From Chloroflexota bacterium (GTDB lineage: Bacteria; Chloroflexota; Limnocylindria; Limnocylindrales; CSP1-4): a stretch of DNA of 44,274 bases. Shown in pieces: positions 13,404 to 23,828 of this stretch. How positions within the stretch are numbered: the first letter of the stretch is position 1; every line of letters starts with the position of its first letter. Under the pieces are notes generated by a model that saw nothing but the letters and a program-made list of their open reading frames with translations, ran no database searches and had not been told where the DNA came from. The stretch spans positions 1 through 44,274 of the forward strand of contig JACDBP010000319.1 of NCBI GenBank assembly GCA_013694835.1, written 5' to 3'. The translations under genes were made by a program, and so were the position numbers.

Positions 13404-13976
13404 TCAGTCTTCGCGCAGCTCCCAATGGAAGCGCTCCGAGCGCTCCGCCGCCGACTCGAGCTGGCTGTAGGACCCGCCGTGATAGAGAAGCGGCGGCGAA
13501 TCGCGCGGGTTGAGCCAGACTCCGTGGATGAGGCCGAGGAACAGGGAATGCGAGTACACCTCGTACGACGTCTGCACTTCGCACTCGAGGTGCGCGAGGG
13601 CCTCGGACAGCCTGGGCGTGGCGTCGCTGGGCAGTCCCGTGGCCATCCAATCCTCGCGCAGGCGTTTGTCCGATCCGGGCCGGCTGCAGTAGAGCGCTAC
13701 GTTTCGTTGCCCCACCGACAGGAGGTTGACGCCGTACCTTCCCCGAGCGGTGATCTCCGCGTGGGCGCGCGACGTACGGTTGATGGCCACCAGGAGCGAT
13801 GGGGGCGAGGCCGACAACGAGCACATCGACGTCGCGGTCATGCCGCATGCTCGACCACCACCGTCGAAATACGTCACGATCACGACCGTCGTCGCGTGCC
13901 GCCTGAACGCTTGACGGAAGAGCTGGACCTCGCTCGCGGGATCCATCTCGTTTGGGTCGTCTGAGGCTTCGGGCAT
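13404..13976 (-). CDS. Flavin reductase (HpaC/Flavin_Reduct family)
   Basis: Contains FRQAFRRHATTVVIVTY...GMTATSMCSLSASPPSLLVAI and LECEV...GDHSLF-like (SHSLFLG) motifs. I preferred ATG 13976 (190 aa) over the track GTG 14036, because it leaves an 88-nt divergent promoter region with the HpaB-like gene. Confidence 0.8.
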   Translation of the reverse strand: MPEASDDPNEMDPASEVQLFRQAFRRHATTVVIVTYFDGGGRACGMTATSMCSLSASPPSLLVAINRTSRAHAEITARGRYGVNLLSVGQRNVALYCSRPGSDKRLREDWMATGLPSDATPRLSEALAHLECEVQTSYEVYSHSLFLGLIHGVWLNPRDSPPLLYHGGSYSQLESAAERSERFHWELRED

Positions 13977-14064: not shown

Positions 14065-15492
14065 ATGCGGCGAGGCGCTGACTACATCGCAGGCATCCGG
14101 CGCGATGGCCGGACGATCCTCCTGGACGGTGAGCCCATCGACGATGTCACCACCCATCCAGGGTTCGCAGGCCCGACCCGGGTCGTAGCGTCGCTCTACG
14201 ACGACGCGATCGGCGACGCCGAGATCGCGTACGAGGACGAGGGCCGCTCCCACAGCGCGATGTGGCTTCCGCCCAGATCCGCCGAGGATCTTGAGCGGCG
14301 ACGGATGGTCCACCGTCATTGGGCGGAGGGTTGCTTCGGCCTGATGGGGCGCACGCCAGACCACGTCGCCTCCATCATCACCGCCTTCGCTGCACGGCGG
14401 GACGTCTTCGACCGTGCGGGCACTCGCTACGGCGACAATGTCGTGTCGTTCTATCGGCAGGCGCGGGACAACGACTGGTTCGTGTCCTACGCAGTCACGC
14501 CGCCACAGGTGGATCGATCGAAGCCGGCCCACCTTCAGCCCGAACCGTTCCTGTATCCGGGCGTCGCCGAAGAGCGAGACGATGGCATCGTCATCCGCGG
14601 CGCGCAGATGATCGCCACCTCGGCCGCGATCTCCGACTACCTGTTCCTGAGCTATATCGCGCCGCTGCAGCCGGGCGACGAGGACTACGCGATCTCGGTC
14701 GTCATGCCGCTGAGCGCCGAGGGCCTCCGTCTGTACCCGCGGCGTCCGTACGCCACCATCGCGACGAGCACGTTCGACTACCCCCTCTCGGCACGCTTCG
14801 ATGAATCGGACAACCTCGTCGTGTTGCGCGATGTCTTCGTGCCGTGGGAACACGTTTTCGTCCACCGCGACATCGGGCTCGTCAATCGGCAGTTCCATGA
14901 GACGGGCGCCCATGTCCTCGCCAACTACCAGGCCCTCATCCGATTCCTCGTCAAGCTCGAGTTCGTTTCGGGCCTGGCCATCGAGCTCGCTGATGCGCAT
15001 GGCCTCTCGGCGATCCCTCCGGTCCAGGCCCAGTTGGGCGGCGATATCGCCGCCTTCTGCTCAGCGCTCGAGGCGATCGTGCTCGCGGCCCAGGCCCGTC
15101 CCCAGACACGGAACGGTCTTGTCCTTCCGGCACCTTCCTTCGTCAGCGCAGGTGTCAGCCTTCAACGGCGATGGGTCGTCGACCTCATGCGCGCTCTGCG
15201 CGAGCTCGGTGGCGGGGGGTTCATCGCGATGCCATCAGCAGACAGCTACGAGGCCGCAGAGACCGCTGAAGACGTCGAGCGCTATTACCGCTCGGCCACG
15301 CTCTCGTCGCGCGACCGGGTGCAGTTGCTCAAGCTCATGTGGGACCTGGTCGGAACGGAGTTCGCGGGGCGGCAATTGCAGTACGAGATGTTCTACTCGG
15401 CTGCCCAGCACATCGCCGACCTGCAAGTCTTCAAGTCCTTCGACTGGGAGAAGGGGCGCGTGCACGTCCGTCGATCGATGCGGCCGACCTGA
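14065..15492 (+). CDS. 4-hydroxyphenylacetate 3-monooxygenase family oxygenase component (HpaB-type, two-component FADH2-dependent)
   Basis: A 475-aa ORF. The N-terminus GADYIAGIRRDGRTILLDGEPIDDVTTHPGFAGPTRVVASLYD is the typical HpaB-family start. GAGG lies 7 nt upstream of the ATG, and the gene is divergent from a flavin reductase. Confidence 0.88.
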   Translation: MRRGADYIAGIRRDGRTILLDGEPIDDVTTHPGFAGPTRVVASLYDDAIGDAEIAYEDEGRSHSAMWLPPRSAEDLERRRMVHRHWAEGCFGLMGRTPDHVASIITAFAARRDVFDRAGTRYGDNVVSFYRQARDNDWFVSYAVTPPQVDRSKPAHLQPEPFLYPGVAEERDDGIVIRGAQMIATSAAISDYLFLSYIAPLQPGDEDYAISVVMPLSAEGLRLYPRRPYATIATSTFDYPLSARFDESDNLVVLRDVFVPWEHVFVHRDIGLVNRQFHETGAHVLANYQALIRFLVKLEFVSGLAIELADAHGLSAIPPVQAQLGGDIAAFCSALEAIVLAAQARPQTRNGLVLPAPSFVSAGVSLQRRWVVDLMRALRELGGGGFIAMPSADSYEAAETAEDVERYYRSATLSSRDRVQLLKLMWDLVGTEFAGRQLQYEMFYSAAQHIADLQVFKSFDWEKGRVHVRRSMRPT

Positions 15493-15522: not shown

Positions 15523-17301
15523 TCATTCGATAAGGGCGGACAGTTCCCGGTCGATGAGGTCGTGGACGGCGTTCTGGGCCGCGATCGGCCGGACGGTGTG
15601 ATCGCGTGCGGGCAGGTCCTCCATCACCACGTTCGGCCAGCGGTCGATCCGGGCGATGATCCCATCGCGCTCGAGCTCATGCCGAACGGCCTCGTCGCCG
15701 GAGAAGGCGACGACGACCCTCGTCCGCGAGTCGCGGAGCTGGTCGAGGGTGCGCTCGAGCTTGACGGTCTGTGGGTCTGCCCGGCGCCGATGACGCAGGC
15801 GACCGGGGATCCGAAGCAGCCCCCGCCAGGGCTGGAGCGCCATCGCTCGTCCGATCCTCAGCAGGCGTGCAGCCTTGACCTCCCCGCGCAGGATCCGCCG
15901 CCACGAGTACGGTTGCATCGCACGCCTCGCCAGGCGTGCATCACGGTGCGCTTCGAGCGCGGGATCCCACACCAGCGCTCTAGGGTTGAGGAGCACGGCC
16001 GCGACCACGCGGTCGTCCGCGGCTGCCGTGTTGAACGCCCAGTACGCGCCCGAACACAAGCCGATCAGGACGAAGCGTTGCCCGACCCCGCGTGACTCGA
16101 GCGCATCGATGATCGCTGTCACCTGCTCGCCCAGGTCTGGTGTGTAGAACCGGCCGACGTCGACGTAAACGCCAGCGTCACCGTCAGCGTCCCCGATGCC
16201 CACGAAGTCGACCCGAAGTGTGGGCACGCGTCGGGCCGCCCATCGTCGCCCCGCTTCGACCCACATCCGGTTCGGCCCGATGCGTCGTATGGCACCGGCG
16301 TTCAGGAAGATCGCGCACAGGTCGGCCCGTGGCTCGGACCACGGCTCGGCCAGGAGCCCAACGGATCCTTCGAGGGTCCCGTCGTGGCCGATGGGTGTCT
16401 CGCGGATGCGCGATCCATCAACCAGGAAGTCGCCATGGTCACCTGTGGGCGGACCAGCAGGCTTGCGTGGTGGAGCCGATGGCGAGAGGGCGGCGGGCGC
16501 GGCCTCGAGCCATGCGTTGACCCGGCCGAACACCTCGAGCGGTGGCTGATAGTGCTCCACGTTGAAGCACATCGCCCCCCAGCCCGTACCAGACCCGACG
16601 GTCACCGCGACCCCGCCACGCTCGAGCGCCGTATGGAGGCGTCCGTCGGTCGGGATGCCATCACGCGCCATGAGCATGGCCCGTTGCAGCCCTCCGAATC
16701 CTGCCTCGCCGACCTCGATCCGCTCGATCGCCGAGATCGTCTCCGCGGAGAGAACGAAGCCGCCGACCTCGAGCCATCCGTCGGGGAGAGTCGTGTCCGC
16801 AGTGCCAGTCGCGCCGTATCCCGAACTCTGGAACTTCGCGAACGCCCGCTGCTCGCGCAGAAAGGACCGTCCGCGGGCCGGTGACGCCCACAGCACGAGA
16901 TCATCGATCGGCGCGCCATCGGCGAGCGCAAGGCTGGCGATGAGGCCCCCGAGGCCGAGCCCGATCACGGCTACCCGCGCGCCCGTTGTGTCGCGTAACC
17001 AAGTCGTGGCGGCAACGATCGCCTCCGTCCATGCCCCCAGCCGAGCCGGATCGCTCGGCGAACCGGCGCTGTCGCCGGCGCCGGGCAAGTCGATCCGCAG
17101 CGAGGGGTGGCCGGTGTCGGCCAGGTGCTCCGCCCATGCTCGCCGACTGCGATACGTCGTCACCTCATCCCACCCCCACGGCGGACAGATGAGGACGGCC
17201 GTTCCGGGTGGCATGCTCGGAGACGCCCCGTGGAAGATCCCGAACAGGGGACCGGACTCGATGTTGAGGTACATCGGGCGGGCCGACGGTACGTCGATCA
17301 A
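15523..17301 (-). CDS. Tandem alpha/beta-hydrolase-fold protein (two hydrolase-like domains in one chain)
   Basis: A 592-aa ORF. Domain 1 has the elbow VAVIGLGLGGLIA, with Gly at the nucleophile position. Domain 2 has the elbow FVLIGLCSGAYWA, with Cys at the nucleophile position, followed by AFSGDEA and PARDHTV (candidate Asp and His). TTG 17301 overlaps the upstream stop as TTGA; the alternative start is ATG 17274 (MYLNIESGPLFGIFH). Confidence 0.7.
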   Translation of the reverse strand: MIDVPSARPMYLNIESGPLFGIFHGASPSMPPGTAVLICPPWGWDEVTTYRSRRAWAEHLADTGHPSLRIDLPGAGDSAGSPSDPARLGAWTEAIVAATTWLRDTTGARVAVIGLGLGGLIASLALADGAPIDDLVLWASPARGRSFLREQRAFAKFQSSGYGATGTADTTLPDGWLEVGGFVLSAETISAIERIEVGEAGFGGLQRAMLMARDGIPTDGRLHTALERGGVAVTVGSGTGWGAMCFNVEHYQPPLEVFGRVNAWLEAAPAALSPSAPPRKPAGPPTGDHGDFLVDGSRIRETPIGHDGTLEGSVGLLAEPWSEPRADLCAIFLNAGAIRRIGPNRMWVEAGRRWAARRVPTLRVDFVGIGDADGDAGVYVDVGRFYTPDLGEQVTAIIDALESRGVGQRFVLIGLCSGAYWAFNTAAADDRVVAAVLLNPRALVWDPALEAHRDARLARRAMQPYSWRRILRGEVKAARLLRIGRAMALQPWRGLLRIPGRLRHRRRADPQTVKLERTLDQLRDSRTRVVVAFSGDEAVRHELERDGIIARIDRWPNVVMEDLPARDHTVRPIAAQNAVHDLIDRELSALIE

Positions 17302-19889
17302 GGCGGCCCGCCCACGACCTCGATCGGGATCTGACCGATGAGGTTGAGCGCCGTCAGGGTCCCGCCACCGAATCGGCGCCCGTCGTCGAGAGGGTGCAGC
17401 GAGATCAGCCGCGTGCCGCCCGGCTCGACCGAGAACGCATCATCCCCGGCGGAGAAGCCGTCCACGTGGATCCGGACGCCATAGGCAAGCCGGCGGCTCC
17501 GGACCGTCAGCCGGACCGTCCCGTCCGCGGCCGACTGGGCGCTCGCCTCGAGTGCCAGGCGGTCGGGCCTCTCGACGTCGACCGGTCGACCGGCCGGGAA
17601 GCGGACTGCCTGCGAAAGCAGCTCGCGCCCGGTCTGCCCGTCTTGCTCGAGGCTCACCACGAGCACATCATGGGCGGGTGGCCCGAACCGATAGGCCCAC
17701 GACACGTCGACGAAGTGCCCGAGCAGCGTCTCGACATTCCGCACGTGTGCGCCGTGCGCGGCAACGTCGATCGTTTCCTGGCCTTCCCCGACCGGCTGCT
17801 CCAGGTCGCGATAGAGCGCCACCCGCAGGCGAGCCACGAGCGGCGTCGAGTGATCGTTCGCCACATGGACGACGACGCCGCCGAGGCCCTCATCGGTCGT
17901 CCAGACCGCTACCGGCGCGAGGGCACGGCGAAGATGGTGATAGGCGACCTTGGGCATCCCACGGTGGTCGAGGACGCCCCAACCCGCGCCCGCAGCGAGA
18001 TCGCGGAGCCACAGGACGAGCGCACCATGACACGTCGAGTCGGTCCGACGCCATTCCCCGAAGACCTCGGCCATGACCTCGCCGCTGACTGCCCGGGAGA
18101 ACTCGAGGTACCGTTCGTGGTCGATCCTGCGAAGCTCGCCCGGGTCCTGCCCGAACAGGTCGGCCAGATAGTGGTCGCGAACATCGTCGAAGTCCCAGCC
18201 GCTGCCGACGTCGCGCGGGACGCCCGCTTTCCAGCGGGGATGGTGGACAACGACCCCTGCCGCGGAATCCGGCAGTAGCGATTCGACGACCGCTTCGTCG
18301 GGTACGTTCGCGAACGCCAGGCACTCGGCGGCGAACCGGACCCCGGAGCTCCGCGCGTCGGCCAGCGGACGCCGATAGCCACCGACCCCGTAATAGTTCG
18401 CGACGCCCCGGTCCGGCCGGAACGGCTGGTCGCCTCCGAACGGCGCAGACGGCGCATAGACCGCGTCCGCCCCGGACGCACGCGACAGTGCTGGGATCGT
18501 CACGCCGAAGAAGTCGGCGCGTCCGAATGTGGGGTCGAGCCCGAGCATCGCGATCTGCTGCTCGATCTCGCTGTTGCCGCACAGCACGGCGAAGCTGGGG
18601 CGGCCGGCGAGCCGGTCGATGACGTCGGTCGCTTCAGCCTCGGCGAGCGCCCGGAACGCGTCATCCGCGAATGGGTAGTCCATGTTCGCGAACATGAGAT
18701 CCTGCCAGACAAGCACACCGAGCTCGTCGCACAGATCGTAGAAGGCGTCCTGCTCATAGGCGCCTGTGCCAGGCAAGCGGAGCATGTTCATCCCACCGTC
18801 ACGGGCGGTCTCGACCGCCGCACGAAGCGATCCTGGCGAGGGAGCGAGGCCGCGTGGGTCGACCGGAGTCCAGACCGCCCCCCGCGCGAAGATCCGCACG
18901 TCGTTCAGGTGGAGGTCGAGCCCATCGCGCTCGAGGTCGTGACCGGCCCCGGGACCCGCTGCCAGTCGTCGAAAGCCGACCCGCCCGGCGTCGATCGCGA
19001 TCGGCCCTACGTCGGTCTCGACCTTGAATCTAACGTCGTACAGGGCAGGCTCGCCGTGGGTGTGAGGCCACCACCGTCGTGCCGCTGGCACCCGCACCTC
19101 TCCCCGGAAGAGCAGTCGTTGTTCGTCGCCGGACGTGTCCAGGTATGCATGATGGGATCCCGTCTCCCCGGTCAGGACGACCCCGACCTGACGGGTCCGG
19201 CGGGCACCGATGGTCCGCACGCCAAGGCGCACCGACAGCACACCTTCGTCGCCGTCGAGTCGCGGCCGAAGGTCGATGCGCTCGACGGTGATGCCTCGCC
19301 GGCGCTCGAGCCAGACGGGCCCCCACGGGCCGACCGCAGGCGGCCCGGGCGCGAACCCTGGCGCGCGGCCGAGGAGCGTCGTTCTGATCCAGCGCAGATT
19401 GCCGTCGGCGACGAGGCGCGTCCGCCATCTGGCCCGCGGGCGGCGCGGTGCGCTCAACCTGGGTCCGAGGGCACTAAACCGGATCGCAAGCTCGTTCGCG
19501 CCGCGCAGGCGGCCGCCGATCTCGATCGCGTGGCGGACGAACATCGAATCGCTGACCACCACCTGTTCCCCATTCAGGTATACCTCGGCGATGGTCGCAA
19601 GGCCGTCGAGGAAGAGCACGACCGACTCGTCATCGTCGCCACGGGCCGCCTGGAAGTTCGTCCGGAACCACCAGTCCTGGGCGTCGAGATCAGCTGCCAT
19701 CAGACCGGCCTCGGCGAGCACCGAGGCGACCGTGCCGGGCACTCGTGCCGGAAGCCAGGTCAACCCATCGAGCTCAGCGGGGTCGGCGAACGAGTCCGGC
19801 GCAGCGGATGCGGCTACCCAACCTTCATCGAGCGGCACGACATCGTGATCCTGGACGCGGACCCGCCGTGCCAACCGTGCCGGCGGCAT
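17298..19889 (-). CDS. Glycoside hydrolase family 2-like protein (beta-mannosidase / exo-glucosaminidase type), cytoplasmic
   Basis: An 863-aa ORF. It has the sugar-binding N-domain pattern (WLPARVPGTV...DWWFRT...FLDGLATIAEVYLNG). The TIM-barrel region contains MNMLRLPGTG...VLVWQDLMF, CGNSEIE (acid/base Glu, compare GNNE) and RFAAECLAFANVP (candidate nucleophile Glu). There is no signal peptide. Confidence 0.78.
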   Translation of the reverse strand: MPPARLARRVRVQDHDVVPLDEGWVAASAAPDSFADPAELDGLTWLPARVPGTVASVLAEAGLMAADLDAQDWWFRTNFQAARGDDDESVVLFLDGLATIAEVYLNGEQVVVSDSMFVRHAIEIGGRLRGANELAIRFSALGPRLSAPRRPRARWRTRLVADGNLRWIRTTLLGRAPGFAPGPPAVGPWGPVWLERRRGITVERIDLRPRLDGDEGVLSVRLGVRTIGARRTRQVGVVLTGETGSHHAYLDTSGDEQRLLFRGEVRVPAARRWWPHTHGEPALYDVRFKVETDVGPIAIDAGRVGFRRLAAGPGAGHDLERDGLDLHLNDVRIFARGAVWTPVDPRGLAPSPGSLRAAVETARDGGMNMLRLPGTGAYEQDAFYDLCDELGVLVWQDLMFANMDYPFADDAFRALAEAEATDVIDRLAGRPSFAVLCGNSEIEQQIAMLGLDPTFGRADFFGVTIPALSRASGADAVYAPSAPFGGDQPFRPDRGVANYYGVGGYRRPLADARSSGVRFAAECLAFANVPDEAVVESLLPDSAAGVVVHHPRWKAGVPRDVGSGWDFDDVRDHYLADLFGQDPGELRRIDHERYLEFSRAVSGEVMAEVFGEWRRTDSTCHGALVLWLRDLAAGAGWGVLDHRGMPKVAYHHLRRALAPVAVWTTDEGLGGVVVHVANDHSTPLVARLRVALYRDLEQPVGEGQETIDVAAHGAHVRNVETLLGHFVDVSWAYRFGPPAHDVLVVSLEQDGQTGRELLSQAVRFPAGRPVDVERPDRLALEASAQSAADGTVRLTVRSRRLAYGVRIHVDGFSAGDDAFSVEPGGTRLISLHPLDDGRRFGGGTLTALNLIGQIPIEVVGGPP

Positions 19890-19893
19890 GGGG

Positions 19894-20859
19894 CTACCGG
19901 ACTGCGTCGTCGAGCGCGCCGAGTGCCACGTCCCACGCTTCGCTCAACGCGTCGATCGCGGCCTCGGCGTCGAATGGCCGCCGCCGAGCGAGCTTGAAGC
20001 CAAGTAGCTTGGACCCCTCGACGATCTCCGACATGGCCGTCACCGCCCGCCCGCCCTCATCGCCGAGCAGCCAGCCGACGTGCGAGGCGCACAGTTCGAA
20101 CCCGGCTCCCGCCATCCGCACGGTCGCGAATGCGTAGGCATGGAATCGAGCCACATCGCCGGCCAGCAGGTCCGGGAGGTCACGGCTCAGTCGAACGCCG
20201 AACCGGTCGAACGGATTGCCGGCATGGACCCGATCGAGGTGATGGCGCAGGATCTCGCGGGACGCTGCCCGCAGCGCGGCCCCTTCGAGGCGCGGGCCGG
20301 CATCGAAGCGGATGAGCTCCGTGTATGGGGGAAGGATCTCGTCGTCCGCGTGGTCGACCCGAAACACGCCGCGGTAGTCTTCCCCGCTCAGCTCGTGCAG
20401 TGACGTGTTGTGGAAGTAGCGGAGGCGTTGCCCGAGCAGGTCGATCGCCTCGGCGGCGACGCCGGTCTTCACGTGCTCCGTGCGATAGCTGCTCGAGGCC
20501 GTATCCGGAAGGTGCCAGGCGTCGAGCTCCACGGTGAGCGAGCGGCCATCGGCGAGAAGCTCAGCGATCTGGTCAGGCATGGACCGGTAGGGCTGCATCT
20601 CGTGGATATCGACACCGAAGAGGCGCTCGAGGTCCTCGGGGGGTGGCTTGAAGAACGTCCACTGGTCCCCTTCGAAGTCCATTCGAACGATCGAGCCGAG
20701 GCACGCCAACGGTTCGTCGCCCCGAGCGTGGAGGAGCTCGATAAGCAGGTCCGTGTAGCAGTTCGTCTCCTGGTACGTGCGTTCGGCGGCATGCAGTGGG
20801 TGCGATCGATACGTGGCCGGATCGAGCCCGAACAGGCTGACCATGCCGGACGTAGCCAT
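19894..20859 (-). CDS. Conserved hypothetical protein (I recall it as DUF1839-like; family assignment unverified)
   Basis: Corresponds to the C-terminal 321 aa of the 650-aa track ORF 19894..21846. It starts at ATG 20859 (MATSGMVSLFGLDP...), 2 nt after the ligase stop; an alternative GTG at 20865 overlaps that stop as GTGA. The upstream part of the track ORF is an alternate frame of the ligase gene. It contains YQETNCYTDLLIELLHARG near the N-terminus. Confidence 0.55.
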   Translation of the reverse strand: MATSGMVSLFGLDPATYRSHPLHAAERTYQETNCYTDLLIELLHARGDEPLACLGSIVRMDFEGDQWTFFKPPPEDLERLFGVDIHEMQPYRSMPDQIAELLADGRSLTVELDAWHLPDTASSSYRTEHVKTGVAAEAIDLLGQRLRYFHNTSLHELSGEDYRGVFRVDHADDEILPPYTELIRFDAGPRLEGAALRAASREILRHHLDRVHAGNPFDRFGVRLSRDLPDLLAGDVARFHAYAFATVRMAGAGFELCASHVGWLLGDEGGRAVTAMSEIVEGSKLLGFKLARRRPFDAEAAIDALSEAWDVALGALDDAVR

Positions 20860-20861
20860 CG

Positions 20862-21791
20862 TCACGGCCACAGCTGCCGGGTGACCGCGGCCGGCCATCG
20901 AGTGTGGTCGAGGCCGTGGCTCCGCAGGAGGCCGAGCGTGATCCGCTCGAGGCCGAACCCGAGACAGGCGGTGTGGGCTGGGCTGCCGTCGGCCATCGTG
21001 ATCCCGTACGTCCCGGCGAAGTGATCCTGGTGGTAGTTGAACGAGGCGACCGCCGTCGGCTCCGGACCGGCGATGGGGATGAGCAGTTCGAACTTGAGTT
21101 CCTGGGCTCGCTGGTTGGCAGCCAGCATCCGGCCAGCGCGGCCGAAGAACGGGTCGGCGGCCACCTCGGGGTGGGCATCCAGCCCCACACGTGTCAGGAC
21201 CTCTTCCGCTCGATCGCGCCAGCTGTTCCGCCAGAGGGCGACGGTCTCGGGCTCGCCCAGGCGGACCATCTCGCGCTGATGGAACATCTGGAGGCGCGCC
21301 GGATCGGCCGATGGTTCGTGGCGGAAGACGTAGGCGCCGCCGGCGTCGATGGCCAGGCCACCGGGCGGCAGCGGGCCGCGCCGGGCGATGGCCGGATAGA
21401 CCGGGTAGCAGGCGGCCGGCACCAGGACGAGGTCTGTCATCCGCTGGTACCCGCTCCAGTCTCCGTGACGGTGGGCGACGTCCTCTTGCTCGATGGCCTC
21501 CTGCTCGGTCCCCTCGAACGAGAAGATCGTGCCGGCCAGGTGGGGGAAGGACTTGAGGTAGCCGCTCGCCTCGAAGTGGCGACGCGGCAGGACCGGCGGA
21601 AAGCGCATCGCCTCGGCACCATCGGGTTCGGCCACCCGGCTGACGAGGCGGTCGAATGCCTCCCGGATCCGCTCGAAGCCGCCGCCACGGCCGTACACGC
21701 CAGGCTCCCCGGTCTCGATCAGCAACCCATGATCGAGGAGCTCCACGAGGAATTCGGCCTGGTCGGGAGTGGCCGCCAGGAGCCCGGCCAT
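20862..21791 (-). CDS. Amino acid--[acyl-carrier-protein] ligase (class II aaRS / atypical SerRS catalytic-core homolog without a tRNA-binding domain)
   Basis: A 309-aa ORF with class II motif 2 GGAYVFRHEPS...RLQMFHQREMV and motif 3 LGFGLERITLGLL. The Cys residues in PAACYPVYP and HTACLGFG match the Zn site of methanogen-type SerRS and aa:CP ligases. It is too short for any tRNA-binding arm, and a carrier-protein gene lies two genes upstream. Confidence 0.82.
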   Translation of the reverse strand: MAGLLAATPDQAEFLVELLDHGLLIETGEPGVYGRGGGFERIREAFDRLVSRVAEPDGAEAMRFPPVLPRRHFEASGYLKSFPHLAGTIFSFEGTEQEAIEQEDVAHRHGDWSGYQRMTDLVLVPAACYPVYPAIARRGPLPPGGLAIDAGGAYVFRHEPSADPARLQMFHQREMVRLGEPETVALWRNSWRDRAEEVLTRVGLDAHPEVAADPFFGRAGRMLAANQRAQELKFELLIPIAGPEPTAVASFNYHQDHFAGTYGITMADGSPAHTACLGFGLERITLGLLRSHGLDHTRWPAAVTRQLWP

Positions 21792-22966
21792 CAGACGTCC
21801 TTGGCGATGAGCAGCAGGAGTGCGTTCCGCTCGTGGATCCGCTCATTGGCGATCATCAGCGGAGCCGACATCGTATCCCGCAGGTGGCGCCCGACGCTGA
21901 ACGGCGTGTCGTTCTTGTAGCCCACGATGCCACCGATCGCCATGGCGCCCTGGCAGACCCGCGGTGCCTGTTCGGAGGCCGCGATCTTCAGGTTGTTGAA
22001 GCGGAGGATGCTGGCCATCGTGGATAAACGCTCTCGGTCCGGGGTGGCCGACGCTTCGGTGAAGTCTCGCAGGGCCGAGTTCACCTCTGCCCGCAGCAGC
22101 GACAACTCGCTCATGAGATGCGACAGGCGCTGCGCTGTCGGCGGGACCTGGTCGGGACGCTGCTTGGCGGAGGCCCGTACGAACGCGCGAGCCCGGTCGA
22201 ACGCGTCGGTGGCGATCCCCAGCCACAGATGCGACCACAGGAGATGGCTTACCGGTACCATCGATTCGCCCGCGACGATCGGGAAGGGCGTCGGCAGGAC
22301 CTGGTCCGTCGAGAACTCGGCCCGAACGACGAAGCCGGGCGAGGACGTCCCTCGCATGCCCAGCGGATCCCAGGTGCCGGTCTGTTCGAGCGTCATCTGG
22401 TCCTTGTGGGTCAGCACGATGACCTGGTCGCCGGGCTCGGCGTCGGGTGTGCGCCGCAGCGTCGTGAAGAGATCGTCGGCATAGAGACCGTACGACACCG
22501 TCGGCGCCTGCTTCTCGAACGTGGCGTTGCCGTCCCGGGACGGCGTGACCGCCGCGTTCGAGCGCCCGAGGTCCCCACCCGTCCCTACCTCGGACGTGAC
22601 GGAGGCGATGAGCCGCTGGTCACGGGCGACGTCGCGCAGGTATGCCTCGAACCACGGCGCATCGGCCAGGTGCCGGGTCATGCACGCGATCTGGATCTGG
22701 TGCATCGCGTAGACCATGGCGCTCGATCCGCACCGGCGACCGAGTTCGAAGCACGCCGCCGCCACCGCCTCGAACGAGATGCCGCCCCCGCCCAATTCCG
22801 TCGGGATGAGCGCCGACAAGGCCCCGTCCGCACGCAGCGCATCGAGTGCCTCGACCGGAAAACGGGCCTTCCGGTCGACGTCGTCGGCGTTCACTGCGGC
22901 GAACTCATCGGCGATCTTTCGGATCCCGTTCAGGAAGCCCGCGTCGACGTCGATCGCGACGCTCAT
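21791..22966 (-). CDS. Acyl-CoA dehydrogenase-fold flavoprotein
   Basis: A 391-aa ORF with FPVEALDALRADGALSALIPTELGGGG, ASVTSEVGTGGDLG and the C-terminal helical domain ...GGIVGYKNDTPFSVGRHLRD. The ATG at 22966 overlaps the carrier-protein stop as ATGA, and its own stop overlaps the ligase ATG (TGATG). Confidence 0.88.
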   Translation of the reverse strand: MSVAIDVDAGFLNGIRKIADEFAAVNADDVDRKARFPVEALDALRADGALSALIPTELGGGGISFEAVAAACFELGRRCGSSAMVYAMHQIQIACMTRHLADAPWFEAYLRDVARDQRLIASVTSEVGTGGDLGRSNAAVTPSRDGNATFEKQAPTVSYGLYADDLFTTLRRTPDAEPGDQVIVLTHKDQMTLEQTGTWDPLGMRGTSSPGFVVRAEFSTDQVLPTPFPIVAGESMVPVSHLLWSHLWLGIATDAFDRARAFVRASAKQRPDQVPPTAQRLSHLMSELSLLRAEVNSALRDFTEASATPDRERLSTMASILRFNNLKIAASEQAPRVCQGAMAIGGIVGYKNDTPFSVGRHLRDTMSAPLMIANERIHERNALLLLIAKDV

Positions 22967-23208
22967 GCCGCCGACACCTGGAGCCTCTCGAGCGCGTCGG
23001 TGATCGAGGCGACGCTCTGAAAGACACTCCGCTTCAGCATGGCGTCGGGAAACTCGATGTCGAACTCAGCCTCCAGGGCGAGCATGAGGTTGACGCTCGC
23101 ATGCGAGGTCATGCCAGCCTGATAGAGGTCGGCGTGATCTTCCAACGCCTGGATGTCGGTCGGCAGCCGGCCGTGTTGAAGGATGATGTGCCGGACTCGT
23201 TCACCCAT
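22963..23208 (-). CDS. Acyl/aminoacyl carrier protein (81 aa)
   Basis: The sequence DLYQAGMTSHASVNLMLALEAEFDIEFPD is a carrier-protein helix II region. Starting at ATG 23208 puts the candidate phosphopantetheine Ser at residue 35, as in canonical ACPs. The longer starts at 23244 or 23328 would add an N-terminal leader. Confidence 0.78.
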   Translation of the reverse strand: MGERVRHIILQHGRLPTDIQALEDHADLYQAGMTSHASVNLMLALEAEFDIEFPDAMLKRSVFQSVASITDALERLQVSAA

Positions 23209-23296: not shown

Positions 23297-23414
23297 TCCG
23301 GCGGCTCGAGCTTGCACGCACGCACCACGCCGTTCGGAGAGCCCTGTGCCGCTCAAGGCCGGTGGGACGTGTGGGCGGCTTGACAGGCCCGTGACGACGC
23401 CCAACGATCGGCTC

Positions 23415-23828
23415 ATGGTCATCCACGTGGGGCTCGATCTCGTGTCCGTCGCCGAGGTCGCGGATGCACTCGTCGCTCTCCACGGCCACCGGTACCTGAC
23501 CCGGGTCTACACCGAGCGCGAGATCGCGGACTGCCGGACGTCCGCCGGTGTCGACCCAAGAAGGCTGGCGGCCCGGTTCGCGGCAAAGGAGGCGACCCTG
23601 AAGGCCCTGGGCACGGCTGACGATGCGGTCTCCCTGCGCGATATCGAAGTCCAGCGGGAACCGTCTGGACGGGTCCGCTTGGTGCTGCGCGGGGGGGCGG
23701 CTGAACTGGCTGCCGAGGCCGGAGTCGTCGAGCTGGCACTGAGCCTCACCCATGAGGGCGGATACGCCGCGGCGATCGTCGTCGCAGAATACGGGCGGAC
23801 CGCCACCGACGGCGCGGTCCAGCCATGA
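23415..23828 (+). CDS. acpS: Holo-[acyl-carrier-protein] synthase (AcpS-type 4'-phosphopantetheinyl transferase)
   Basis: Starts at the internal ATG (23415) of track ORF 23346..23828. The product contains MVIHVGLDLVSVAEV..., FAAKEATLKALG and LSLTHEGGYAAAIVVAE, the typical AcpS pattern. TTGACA at 23380-23385 lies 29 nt upstream. Confidence 0.85.
   Translation: MVIHVGLDLVSVAEVADALVALHGHRYLTRVYTEREIADCRTSAGVDPRRLAARFAAKEATLKALGTADDAVSLRDIEVQREPSGRVRLVLRGGAAELAAEAGVVELALSLTHEGGYAAAIVVAEYGRTATDGAVQP

Follow-up and report, generated by a model that had tools for sequence, protein, structure and literature searches.

The contig JACDBP010000319.1 of assembly GCA_013694835.1 (44,274 nucleotides, analysed over its full length and referred to below as the window) carries, between 15523 and 23208, six tightly packed minus-strand genes that encode in this order a carrier protein, a flavoprotein with the fold of the acyl-CoA dehydrogenases (ACADs), an amino acid:[carrier protein] ligase, a DUF1839 protein, a glycosidase of glycoside hydrolase family 2 (GH2) and a tandem hydrolase. 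The first three had been singled out in a preliminary description of this sequence, and inspection of the open reading frames (ORFs) placed them where that description had put them, all three on the minus strand: the aminoacyl carrier protein (81 aa) at 22963..23208, the flavoprotein (391 aa), which falls in a distinct clade, at 21791..22966 and the ligase (309 aa) at 20862..21791. The stop codon of the carrier-protein gene and the start codon of the flavoprotein gene share the letters ATGA, the flavoprotein stop and the ligase start share TGATG, and the ligase stop lies 2 nt ahead of the DUF1839 ATG (20859). With their overlapping stop and start codons, the junctions of the first genes point to translational coupling of carrier protein, flavoprotein and ligase. 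This stretch is thus the predicted, translationally coupled core of a conserved and already known amino acid:[carrier protein] ligase cassette. The cassette itself has been annotated, its neighbourhood was described in 2010 and it is found in hundreds of genomes; what is newly added here is a residue-level case against canonical ACAD chemistry in the flavoprotein and the lineage-specific recruitment of a flavin reductase.

A scan of one genome per species with an alignment of 20 sequences returned 571 relatives of the flavoprotein, and the best 80 loci were analysed. These are spread over Actinomycetota (Solirubrobacterales and others), Chloroflexota, Acidobacteriota, Gemmatimonadota, Myxococcota, Rokubacteria and alpha-, beta- and gamma-Proteobacteria (Pseudomonadota), and most of them, across at least 7 phyla, preserve the gene order carrier protein, flavoprotein, ligase, DUF1839, GH2 and hydrolase. 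By tblastn, homologues were found near the cassette for the ligase in 76 loci, the carrier protein in 76, DUF1839 in 74, GH2 in 69, the tandem hydrolase in 54 and an AcpS-type phosphopantetheinyl transferase in 41, for the most part collinear and on one strand, several of the misses being contig ends. Carrier-protein, flavoprotein and ligase genes occur together in 76/80 loci. Conversely, when 201 genomes of the phylum were searched for the ligase family, four matches, that of the window among them, exceeded the cut-off. Each of the four is immediately preceded by the flavoprotein gene and followed by DUF1839 and GH2, an arrangement not seen around three weaker ligase-like paralogues. All-against-all clustering of ORFs around the 80 loci revealed no further widely shared neighbour, none being present in more than 11 of them. 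The preliminary description had likened the three genes to the logic of prolyl oxidation on a carrier protein by PltF, PltL and PltE; the association of loading enzyme, carrier protein and flavoprotein, coupled and recurring in 76/80 loci, stands, but it belongs to the known ligase cassette and is not a new Plt-like invention. A note added in proof in 2010 had already pointed to the conserved neighbourhood, predicting monooxygenation of the aminoacyl group by the redox enzyme and its ligation to a sugar amine by a conserved unknown ORF (PMC2922099). Our literature search turned up no work on the function of either the flavoprotein or DUF1839.

With NF005479 ('amino acid--[acyl-carrier-protein] ligase') the ligase reaches 409.9 bits (cut-off 357), and the structures 4h2w and 3mey of Bll0957 align with it end to end (E 1e-83 and 1.6e-80, respectively). 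It matches the methanogen-type seryl-tRNA synthetase (SerRS) model, which has 518 positions, at positions 358-504 only, that is in the C-terminal catalytic core, and therefore lacks a tRNA-binding domain. In the HMMER alignment its zinc ligands Cys128, Glu174 and Cys276 correspond to Cys131, Glu176 and Cys279 of Bll0957; Cys128 is present in 77/77 aligned ligases, and Glu174 (76) and Cys276 (75) in all of those having a residue there. Motif 2 (Arg157, Glu159) and motif 3 (Gly280, Glu282, Arg283) show at least 95% conservation among the aligned ligases. The class II motifs 2 and 3 and the two zinc cysteines that had been read in this 309-aa protein are hence all seen, and conserved. At the position of Bll0957 Ala281 the window ligase has Gly278, which is Gly in 72 of the 77 ligases. 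Mutagenesis reportedly identified Ala281 as restricting how large an amino acid is accepted, and the rhizobial ligases load Gly, Ala or Ser. Because Gly278 replaces Ala281, we suspect a roomier pocket, Ala- or Ser-sized rather than Gly-only, which may serve as a lead.

A dedicated carrier protein (NF005480, 107 bits against a cut-off of 72; also a PF00550 match) is encoded two genes upstream of the ligase, within the coupled operon. Among solved structures it is closest to the aminoacyl carrier protein Atu2571 (3e-18), and Ser35, already pointed out in the preliminary description, aligns with the phosphopantetheine attachment serine of that protein (GMTS35HASV versus GLSSFASV). Ligase and carrier protein are, on these alignments, orthologues of Bradyrhizobium Bll0957 and Agrobacterium Atu2571, respectively. 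Divergently from the carrier-protein gene, on the plus strand at 23346..23828, lies the gene of an AcpS-type phosphopantetheinyl transferase (holo-ACP synthase; PF01648 2.6e-14, TIGR00556 78.6 bits against a cut-off of 45), the real start of which is probably near 23415 because the family models begin at ORF residue 24.

The flavoprotein passes the Pfam model of the ACAD N-terminal domain (Acyl-CoA_dh_N, 4e-12; 46.9 bits versus 22.9), stays just under the cut-off with the C-terminal models (22.0 versus 22.4 and 21.7 versus 22.7) and gave no detectable match to the ACAD middle domain. A library-wide search at E <= 1e-30 yielded 508 cluster representatives, and the family is therefore large. Its conserved positions were read from an alignment of 81 cassette orthologues and from one of 108 more diverse relatives. 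Canonical ACADs abstract the alpha-proton with a carboxylate at one of two known places, Glu376 of medium-chain acyl-CoA dehydrogenase (MCAD) or the helix-G Glu254 of isovaleryl-CoA dehydrogenase (IVD), a base position shared by LCAD and AnaB. A profile alignment to short-chain acyl-CoA dehydrogenase (SCAD) 7p98, in which 'RhlRDllsaplmisNdri' stands opposite RMMRDAKLTQIYTGTNQI, and a comparison with four canonical ACADs of the same genome, which read 'RDAK....(Y/G)EGT' in this region, both place Ile372 at the Glu376 position. The alignments to 7p98, to 9w60 and to these four ACADs agree on Ile372 and Ser240 at the two base positions. Position 372 is Ile in 48, Val in 31 and Leu in 1 of the 81 orthologues, with 1 gapped, and Ile in 72, Val in 34, Leu in 1 and Ala in 1 of the 108 relatives. 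Position 240 (IVD Glu254, MCAD Thr255) is Ser in 70, Ala in 6 and Thr in 5 of the orthologues, and Ser in 78, Ala in 21, Thr in 4 and another, never acidic, residue in 5 of the relatives. An acidic residue at either base position was thus found in none of the 81 orthologues (one being gapped at 372).

The Ile that the preliminary description had aligned by eye with MCAD Glu376 is thereby borne out, and holds family-wide; the more rigorous alignment, which might have restored a Glu at the 376 equivalent, was run and did not do so. The IVD-type helix-G base that it had left open as an option falls away, since this position is Ser240 in the window and Ser, Ala or Thr in 81/81 orthologues. For the same reason a mechanism of the PltE/AnaB type was ruled out. 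Both known alpha-proton-abstracting carboxylates are thus replaced throughout the family, and because of this the flavoprotein cannot be a canonical acyl-CoA dehydrogenase; with the Glu376-type and the helix-G base both missing, the oxygenase branch of the fold or an unconventional base remains. Other positions are under strong constraint. His241, which takes the place of the conserved ACAD Arg (MCAD Arg256) beside the helix-G base position, is found in all 81 orthologues and in 100 of the 108 relatives (another residue in 8), and Ser158, Tyr159, Lys152, Lys327 and Asp364 are likewise invariant in the orthologues. Ser158 sits at the position of MCAD Thr168, which contacts N5 of the flavin. Met371, Asn374 and Arg376 are present in 80/81 orthologues, the remaining one being gapped, and Met88, His89, Glu126, Trp199, Arg205, Thr207, Ser209, Trp244, Trp248 and Arg363 are also strongly conserved. 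Position 375 is Asp in 45 and Glu in 35 of the orthologues (1 gapped), and Asp in 65, Glu in 21 and another residue in 22 of the relatives.

An AlphaFold2 (AF2) model built from the 108 diverse sequences has the ACAD fold (predicted local distance difference test, pLDDT, 96.7), and Foldseek against the PDB aligned it with the two-component monooxygenases TdsC, DszC, KijD3 and DnmZ at a template modelling (TM) score of 0.78-0.82 and 20-23% identity. Several local motifs resemble this group. The segment W199-D200-x-L-G-M-R-G-T recalls 'DWDSLGMRQT' of TdsC, 'NWDGLGMRAS' of KijD3 and 'TWDTLGMRAT' of 5gj7, at a site where canonical ACADs, including the four of this genome, have E/D-K-M/L-G. After helix G the flavoprotein reads 'AKQRPDQVPP', similar to 'RRPEPP' of KijD3 and 'YRPNTLP' of 5gj7, and canonical ACADs read 'ER.QFG..I..FQ'; this canonical R-x-x-F-G...Q segment touches the ADP part of the flavin adenine dinucleotide (FAD) bound to the neighbouring subunit. 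Met371 stands where canonical ACADs have the Tyr before the catalytic Glu, and a Met is also found there in KijD3 and in Rv1679/FadE16-like proteins. The best NCBIfam matches of the flavoprotein are Rv1679/FadE16 (92 bits, cut-off 600), SfnB and DszC; the DszC, SfnB, HsaA and HpaH-C2 models give 18.6-56 bits, far under their cut-offs of 430-850. In a maximum-likelihood tree of 22 sequences, unrooted and with long branches, the cassette clade (100/100) lies outside the canonical ACAD clade (100/100), with KijD3, 5gj7 and FadE16-like proteins as a grade between them. Because of the long branches and the missing root, all that this tree establishes is that the flavoprotein is no canonical ACAD; it does not establish its identity as an oxygenase.

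A tblastn search of its own genome with the flavoprotein recovered only the gene itself, the four canonical ACADs being too distant for detection in this way, and none of the longer homologues was a fusion of flavoprotein and reductase. Among those longer proteins, one homologue of 572 aa (P0122) has an N-terminal PAS domain and may be a gene-calling artefact, and another of 707 aa (P0223) has about 310 extra C-terminal residues without a Pfam match, possibly from a read-through fusion with the ligase or again from gene calling. Rv1679/FadE16-like genes (L095-L098) read '...RDARAGFVMAPTAD' in place of the YEG loop and miss the catalytic Glu as well; the name 'acyl-CoA dehydrogenase' of that family probably overstates what is known.

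Downstream of the cassette, the window encodes a flavin reductase on the minus strand at 13404..13976 (PF01613, Flavin_Reduct, 1.4e-31) and, between it and the tandem-hydrolase gene, on the plus strand at 14065..15492, an HpaB-type oxygenase component of a two-component flavin monooxygenase (PF11794 1e-79, PF03241 9e-48). The preliminary description had named this reductase as a possible partner of the flavoprotein. From its occurrence near the cassette in 2/80 loci we had at one point regarded it as unrelated to the cassette, and this was withdrawn after analysis of co-occurrence and collinearity at the level of the order. In a sample of 201 genomes of the window's own order, 12 carry the flavoprotein and 189 do not. 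The reductase (40-71% identity) is present in 12/12 cassette-positive genomes, with 2 weak matches (35% identity) in the other 189, and in 10/12 its gene shares contig and strand with the flavoprotein gene, which it follows at a distance of 6.3-9.2 kb. The link is thus strong in the window's family and confined to it; the reductase is no general component of the cassette. HpaB is encoded between cassette and reductase in 7/12 of these genomes, frameshifted in one, and was not found at E 1e-40 in the remaining 5/12. In the five, the spacing equals that of locus L016 (CAWFXA010000001.1), which places the reductase gene immediately behind the cassette. At L016 itself the ATG of the reductase gene and the tandem-hydrolase stop overlap as TGATG, and the reductase is followed by a convergent ornithine cyclodeaminase-like gene and by no other flavoenzyme. 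In one actinobacterial family a flavin reductase thus stays in the cassette operon also in genomes where no client other than the flavoprotein is evident, and this linkage is the best, though indirect, evidence that the flavoprotein uses free reduced flavin.

Some further observations concern these genomes. L016 is labelled 'uncultured Chloroflexia bacterium', while its cassette proteins are 58-76% identical to those of the window and its gene order is of the Solirubrobacterales type; the label may be wrong. Within the order sample, close HpaB homologues (71-83% identity; G124, G220, G222, G279, G335, G379) occur in cassette-positive genomes only and always beside the reductase; HpaB may belong to the pathway as its seventh or eighth component in this lineage and not be an unrelated neighbour. 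In G379 the HpaB gene is spread over three frames, which suggests a frameshift or decay. G279 retains only a fragment of the flavoprotein (residues 140-305, at G279:C1:259439-259939), with intact HpaB and reductase genes (279918-281962) about 20 kb away, and its cassette may be decaying or rearranged.

Directly after the ligase gene follows that of the DUF1839 protein (321 aa, minus strand, 19894..20859; PF08893 5e-92), for which no sequence relative was found in the PDB. Its AF2 model (pLDDT 92.4) gave AziU2/U3, CcbD (including complexes with peptidyl carrier proteins) and CtaG as top Foldseek matches, with E-values of 1e-7 to 1e-5, TM 0.55-0.62 and 13-18% identity to CcbD, CtaG and AziU. CcbD and CtaG are amide-forming transacylases that use acyl groups bound to carrier proteins. 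Cys34, His20, His23, His129 and His150 of DUF1839 are invariant, and on the strength of the model it is likely a carrier-protein-dependent transacylase with a papain-like fold. A survey of papain-like enzymes also puts DUF1839 among them, with a C(T/S)H triad (PMC10318531). Next come the GH2 glycosidase, beta-mannosidase-like (863 aa, minus strand, 17298..19889; PF22666, PF00703), whose candidate catalytic residues Glu441 and Glu522 are kept in at least 93% of 67 aligned sequences, and the tandem alpha/beta-hydrolase protein (592 aa, minus strand, 15523..17301; Pfam Hydrolase_4 and Abhydrolase_6), whose second domain contains a Gly-x-Cys416-x-Gly nucleophile elbow with Gly414, Cys416 and Gly418 conserved in 53 aligned sequences.

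On either side of the cassette, the window has genes for cell shape (RodA and, by eye, PBP2-like) and for an AI-2E transporter. The GC content of the window is even, 0.66-0.72 throughout, and the region therefore bears no foreign mark; the source is a 66%-complete metagenome-assembled genome (MAG) whose closest protein relatives are in Solirubrobacteraceae bins. Neighbours outside the cassette are lineage-specific in the 80 loci, comprising polysaccharide genes (Wzx, glycosyltransferase family 4 (GT4), DegT, WbaP-like, O-antigen-ligase-like) and, in Rhizobiales, genes for modification of elongation factor P (EF-P). By eye, ORFs resembling polysaccharide genes border the cassette in several lineages (L015, L035, L036, L062, L072, L089), among them those of a Wzx-type flippase, GT4 glycosyltransferases, a DegT aminotransferase, a WbaP-like sugar transferase, an O-antigen-ligase-like protein and a polysaccharide deacetylase. 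Six Rhizobiales loci (L081, L083 and L090 among them) have, 2-4 kb upstream, genes read by eye as EF-P, an EpmA/PoxA-like lysyl-tRNA-synthetase paralogue and lysine 2,3-aminomutase. Such neighbours would put a second tRNA-independent aminoacylation derived from an aminoacyl-tRNA synthetase (aaRS) beside the cassette, probably a matter of synteny rather than of function.

Together these observations can be arranged in one pathway. AcpS would convert the carrier protein to the holo form at Ser35, and the zinc-dependent SerRS-like ligase would adenylate a small amino acid and thioesterify it to the phosphopantetheine, both steps being predicted by homology to solved and assayed proteins. The ACAD-fold flavoprotein would then tailor the aminoacyl-S-carrier protein. 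Most likely in the manner of group D two-component monooxygenases, it would take reduced flavin from a separate reductase, in this genome presumably the one at 13404-13976, and use O2 to oxygenate the tethered amino acid; N-oxygenation is our favoured guess because nitrososynthases are among the nearest characterised relatives of the flavoprotein, and C-hydroxylation would also be possible. The CcbD/CtaG-like DUF1839 protein would finally take the acyl group, once modified, off the carrier protein and pass it to an amine, plausibly that of an amino sugar. We consider it slightly more probable than its contrary that the flavoprotein is an oxygenase acting on the aminoacyl-S-carrier protein, and the pathway as a whole, with loading, oxygenation and transfer by DUF1839, we regard as the best explanation of the cassette, with about an even chance of being correct. 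A bolder form, in which the flavoprotein founds a class of reduced-flavin-dependent oxygenases working on carrier proteins that are loaded by an aaRS relic, and an N-hydroxy, oxime or hydroxy aminoacyl unit is passed by DUF1839 to an amino sugar or some other amine, is tentative and, in our judgement, doubtful.

Several results weigh against oxygenation and feed, in part, its most serious competitor, in which the flavoprotein is a self-sufficient FAD-bound dehydrogenase or oxidase that works with an unconventional base (His241, Asp/Glu375) or by direct hydride transfer from the amine, and in which C-alpha/C-beta or C-alpha/N oxidation gives a dehydroamino or imino thioester and from there a 2-oxoacyl-S-carrier protein (glyoxylyl, pyruvoyl). 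Foldseek gives human SCAD and bacterial butyryl-CoA dehydrogenases (BCAD) an equal TM of about 0.8, and a search of PDB sequences with the 108-sequence profile returned BCAD at 115 bits and KijD3 and SCAD both at 111.5 bits; fold and profile scores are equal for both classes and do not decide between dehydrogenation and oxygenation. The beta-domain loop T-S-E-x-G-x-G-G-D, which would line the flavin and substrate, resembles the canonical T-E-P-x-A-G-S-D and is unlike the loops of DszC and KijD3, and Ser158 occupies the N5-contact position of MCAD Thr168. An acidic residue 375 (Asp/Glu in 80/81 orthologues, one gapped) together with the invariant His241 could serve as the unconventional base. 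Oxidation of carrier-bound amino acids by an ACAD fold also has a precedent, to which the flavoprotein is a weak match (prolyl-ACP dehydrogenase 4irn, 3.7e-17). As to the reductase, a homologue lies near the cassette in only 2/80 loci, leaving 78/80 with none linked, HpaB in 0/80, and no homologue of this reductase was found in 3/5 tested cassette genomes outside the window's family; in the window itself the adjacent HpaB is an obvious alternative client, and the 12 reductase-linked genomes are close kin and may reflect one evolutionary event. The biological role of the ligases, of which structures and kinetics have been reported since 2010, is, furthermore, listed as unknown in a 2022 review (PMC9437257). 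Nevertheless, both characterised ACAD base positions are non-acidic (372 hydrophobic in 80/81, one gapped; 240 Ser/Ala/Thr), the R-x-x-F-G...Q segment, which contacts the ADP part of FAD, is missing, the flavoprotein falls outside the canonical clade of the tree, and in the window's family a flavin reductase accompanies the cassette also in genomes in which HpaB was not found. For these reasons we regard an unconventional dehydrogenase or oxidase as unlikely, albeit far from negligible.

Two further explanations touch on whether the flavoprotein performs redox chemistry at all and on what substrate. The nearest characterised relatives, KijD3, DnmZ, ORF36 and DszC, act on free small molecules, and some loci are flanked by amino-sugar genes (DegT aminotransferase, Gfo/Idh/MocA oxidoreductase), so that the flavoprotein might modify the acceptor or another free substrate, as nitrososynthases do with a free thymidine diphosphate (TDP)-amino sugar, and not the carrier-bound amino acid. 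This fits poorly with a flavoprotein gene that in almost every locus stands between the carrier-protein and ligase genes with overlapping codons, and none of the neighbouring sugar genes, which vary with the lineage, occurs in more than 7/80 loci; we consider it quite improbable. The family-wide loss of the catalytic base, a weak NCBIfam match to 3-sulfinopropanoyl-CoA desulfinase (3e-13) and the presence of 5af7 among the Foldseek matches would also suit a non-redox protein, either a lyase comparable to the Glu-less 3-sulfinopropionyl-CoA desulfinase or a scaffold or chaperone holding the loaded carrier protein for DUF1839. Against it, many polar residues at positions which in ACADs line the flavin and substrate site (Ser158, Tyr159, Glu126, His241, Arg205, Thr207, Asn374) are invariant or nearly so, which fits a working active site, and the flavin reductase coupled to the operon in one lineage implies a redox use of the flavin, which makes a non-redox role the least probable of the readings weighed here.

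Three results narrow the chemistry of the flavoprotein to a few predictions testable by mass spectrometry, namely that it cannot be a conventional dehydrogenase, that it groups with the Glu-less, oxygenase-type branch of the fold, and that in one actinobacterial family a reductase has been recruited into the operon. AcpS, carrier protein, ligase, flavoprotein, reductase and DUF1839 make up a compact gene set for reconstitution in vitro, and such a small reconstitution could address what the pathway produces, a 15-year-old question. If the flavoprotein does represent a new class of oxygenase, the cassette would encode a widespread route, independent of tRNA and of nonribosomal peptide synthetases (NRPS), for decorating glycans or small molecules, and the amino acid:[carrier protein] ligases would at last gain a biological role, which they have lacked since 2010.

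The closest known systems are the rhizobial ones, Bll0957 with Bsr0959 in Bradyrhizobium and Atu2573 with Atu2571 in Agrobacterium (PDB 3mey, 3pzc, 4h2s-4h2y, 2jq4), of which the work of Mocibob et al. (2010, 2013; cited in PMC9437257) reportedly characterised the ligase and carrier protein only and not the flavoprotein. Their ligase is an orthologue of that of the window and agrees with it in the zinc triad and in the truncation of the SerRS core, and the rhizobial loci L058, L081, L083, L091 and L092 have flavoprotein, DUF1839 and GH2 neighbours as in the window. The window differs in its host, a Solirubrobacterales-like MAG as judged by protein relatives, in the Gly278 that replaces Ala281 of Bll0957, and in the linked flavin reductase and HpaB that its lineage adds. 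For the flavoprotein, the nearest comparison is with the group D monooxygenases (DszC and TdsC, the nitrososynthases KijD3, ORF36 and DnmZ, and the isobutylamine N-hydroxylase VlmH), which have the fold and the missing catalytic Glu in common with it, as well as the WDxLGMR motif, the R-P segment after helix G and, in KijD3, the Met at the 371 position. These enzymes need a separate flavin reductase, and in the window's family one is linked to the cassette; however, identity is 20-23%, the cassette flavoprotein forms a clade of its own and has an ACAD-like beta-domain loop, and its presumed substrate is a carrier-protein thioester whereas theirs are free molecules. The Rv1679/FadE16 family (NF049984) also misses the catalytic Glu and has Met at the 371 position, but sits on another branch of the tree and has no carrier-protein context.

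The PltF/PltL/PltE and AnaC/AnaD/AnaB (4irn) systems are similar in that an amino acid on a free-standing carrier protein is oxidised by an ACAD-fold flavoprotein. Their loader, however, is an ANL-type adenylation enzyme whereas that of the cassette is a class II aaRS core, AnaB uses a helix-G Glu as base where the cassette flavoprotein has Ser240, and the similarity of the flavoprotein to 4irn (3.7e-17) is weaker than that to SCAD or KijD3. As a functional analogy for the whole cassette, the butirosin pathway (BtrI, BtrJ, BtrK, BtrO/BtrV, BtrH) and the lincosamide enzymes CcbD/LmbD come closest. Their loaders are ATP-grasp enzymes or NRPS adenylation domains in place of the aaRS core of the cassette, and BtrO has a luciferase-like and not an ACAD fold. 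In the butirosin pathway a carrier-tethered amino acid is nonetheless tailored by a two-component flavin monooxygenase and delivered by a papain-fold transacylase to the amine of an amino sugar, BtrH being a papain-like ACP:aminoglycoside acyltransferase (PMC10318531).

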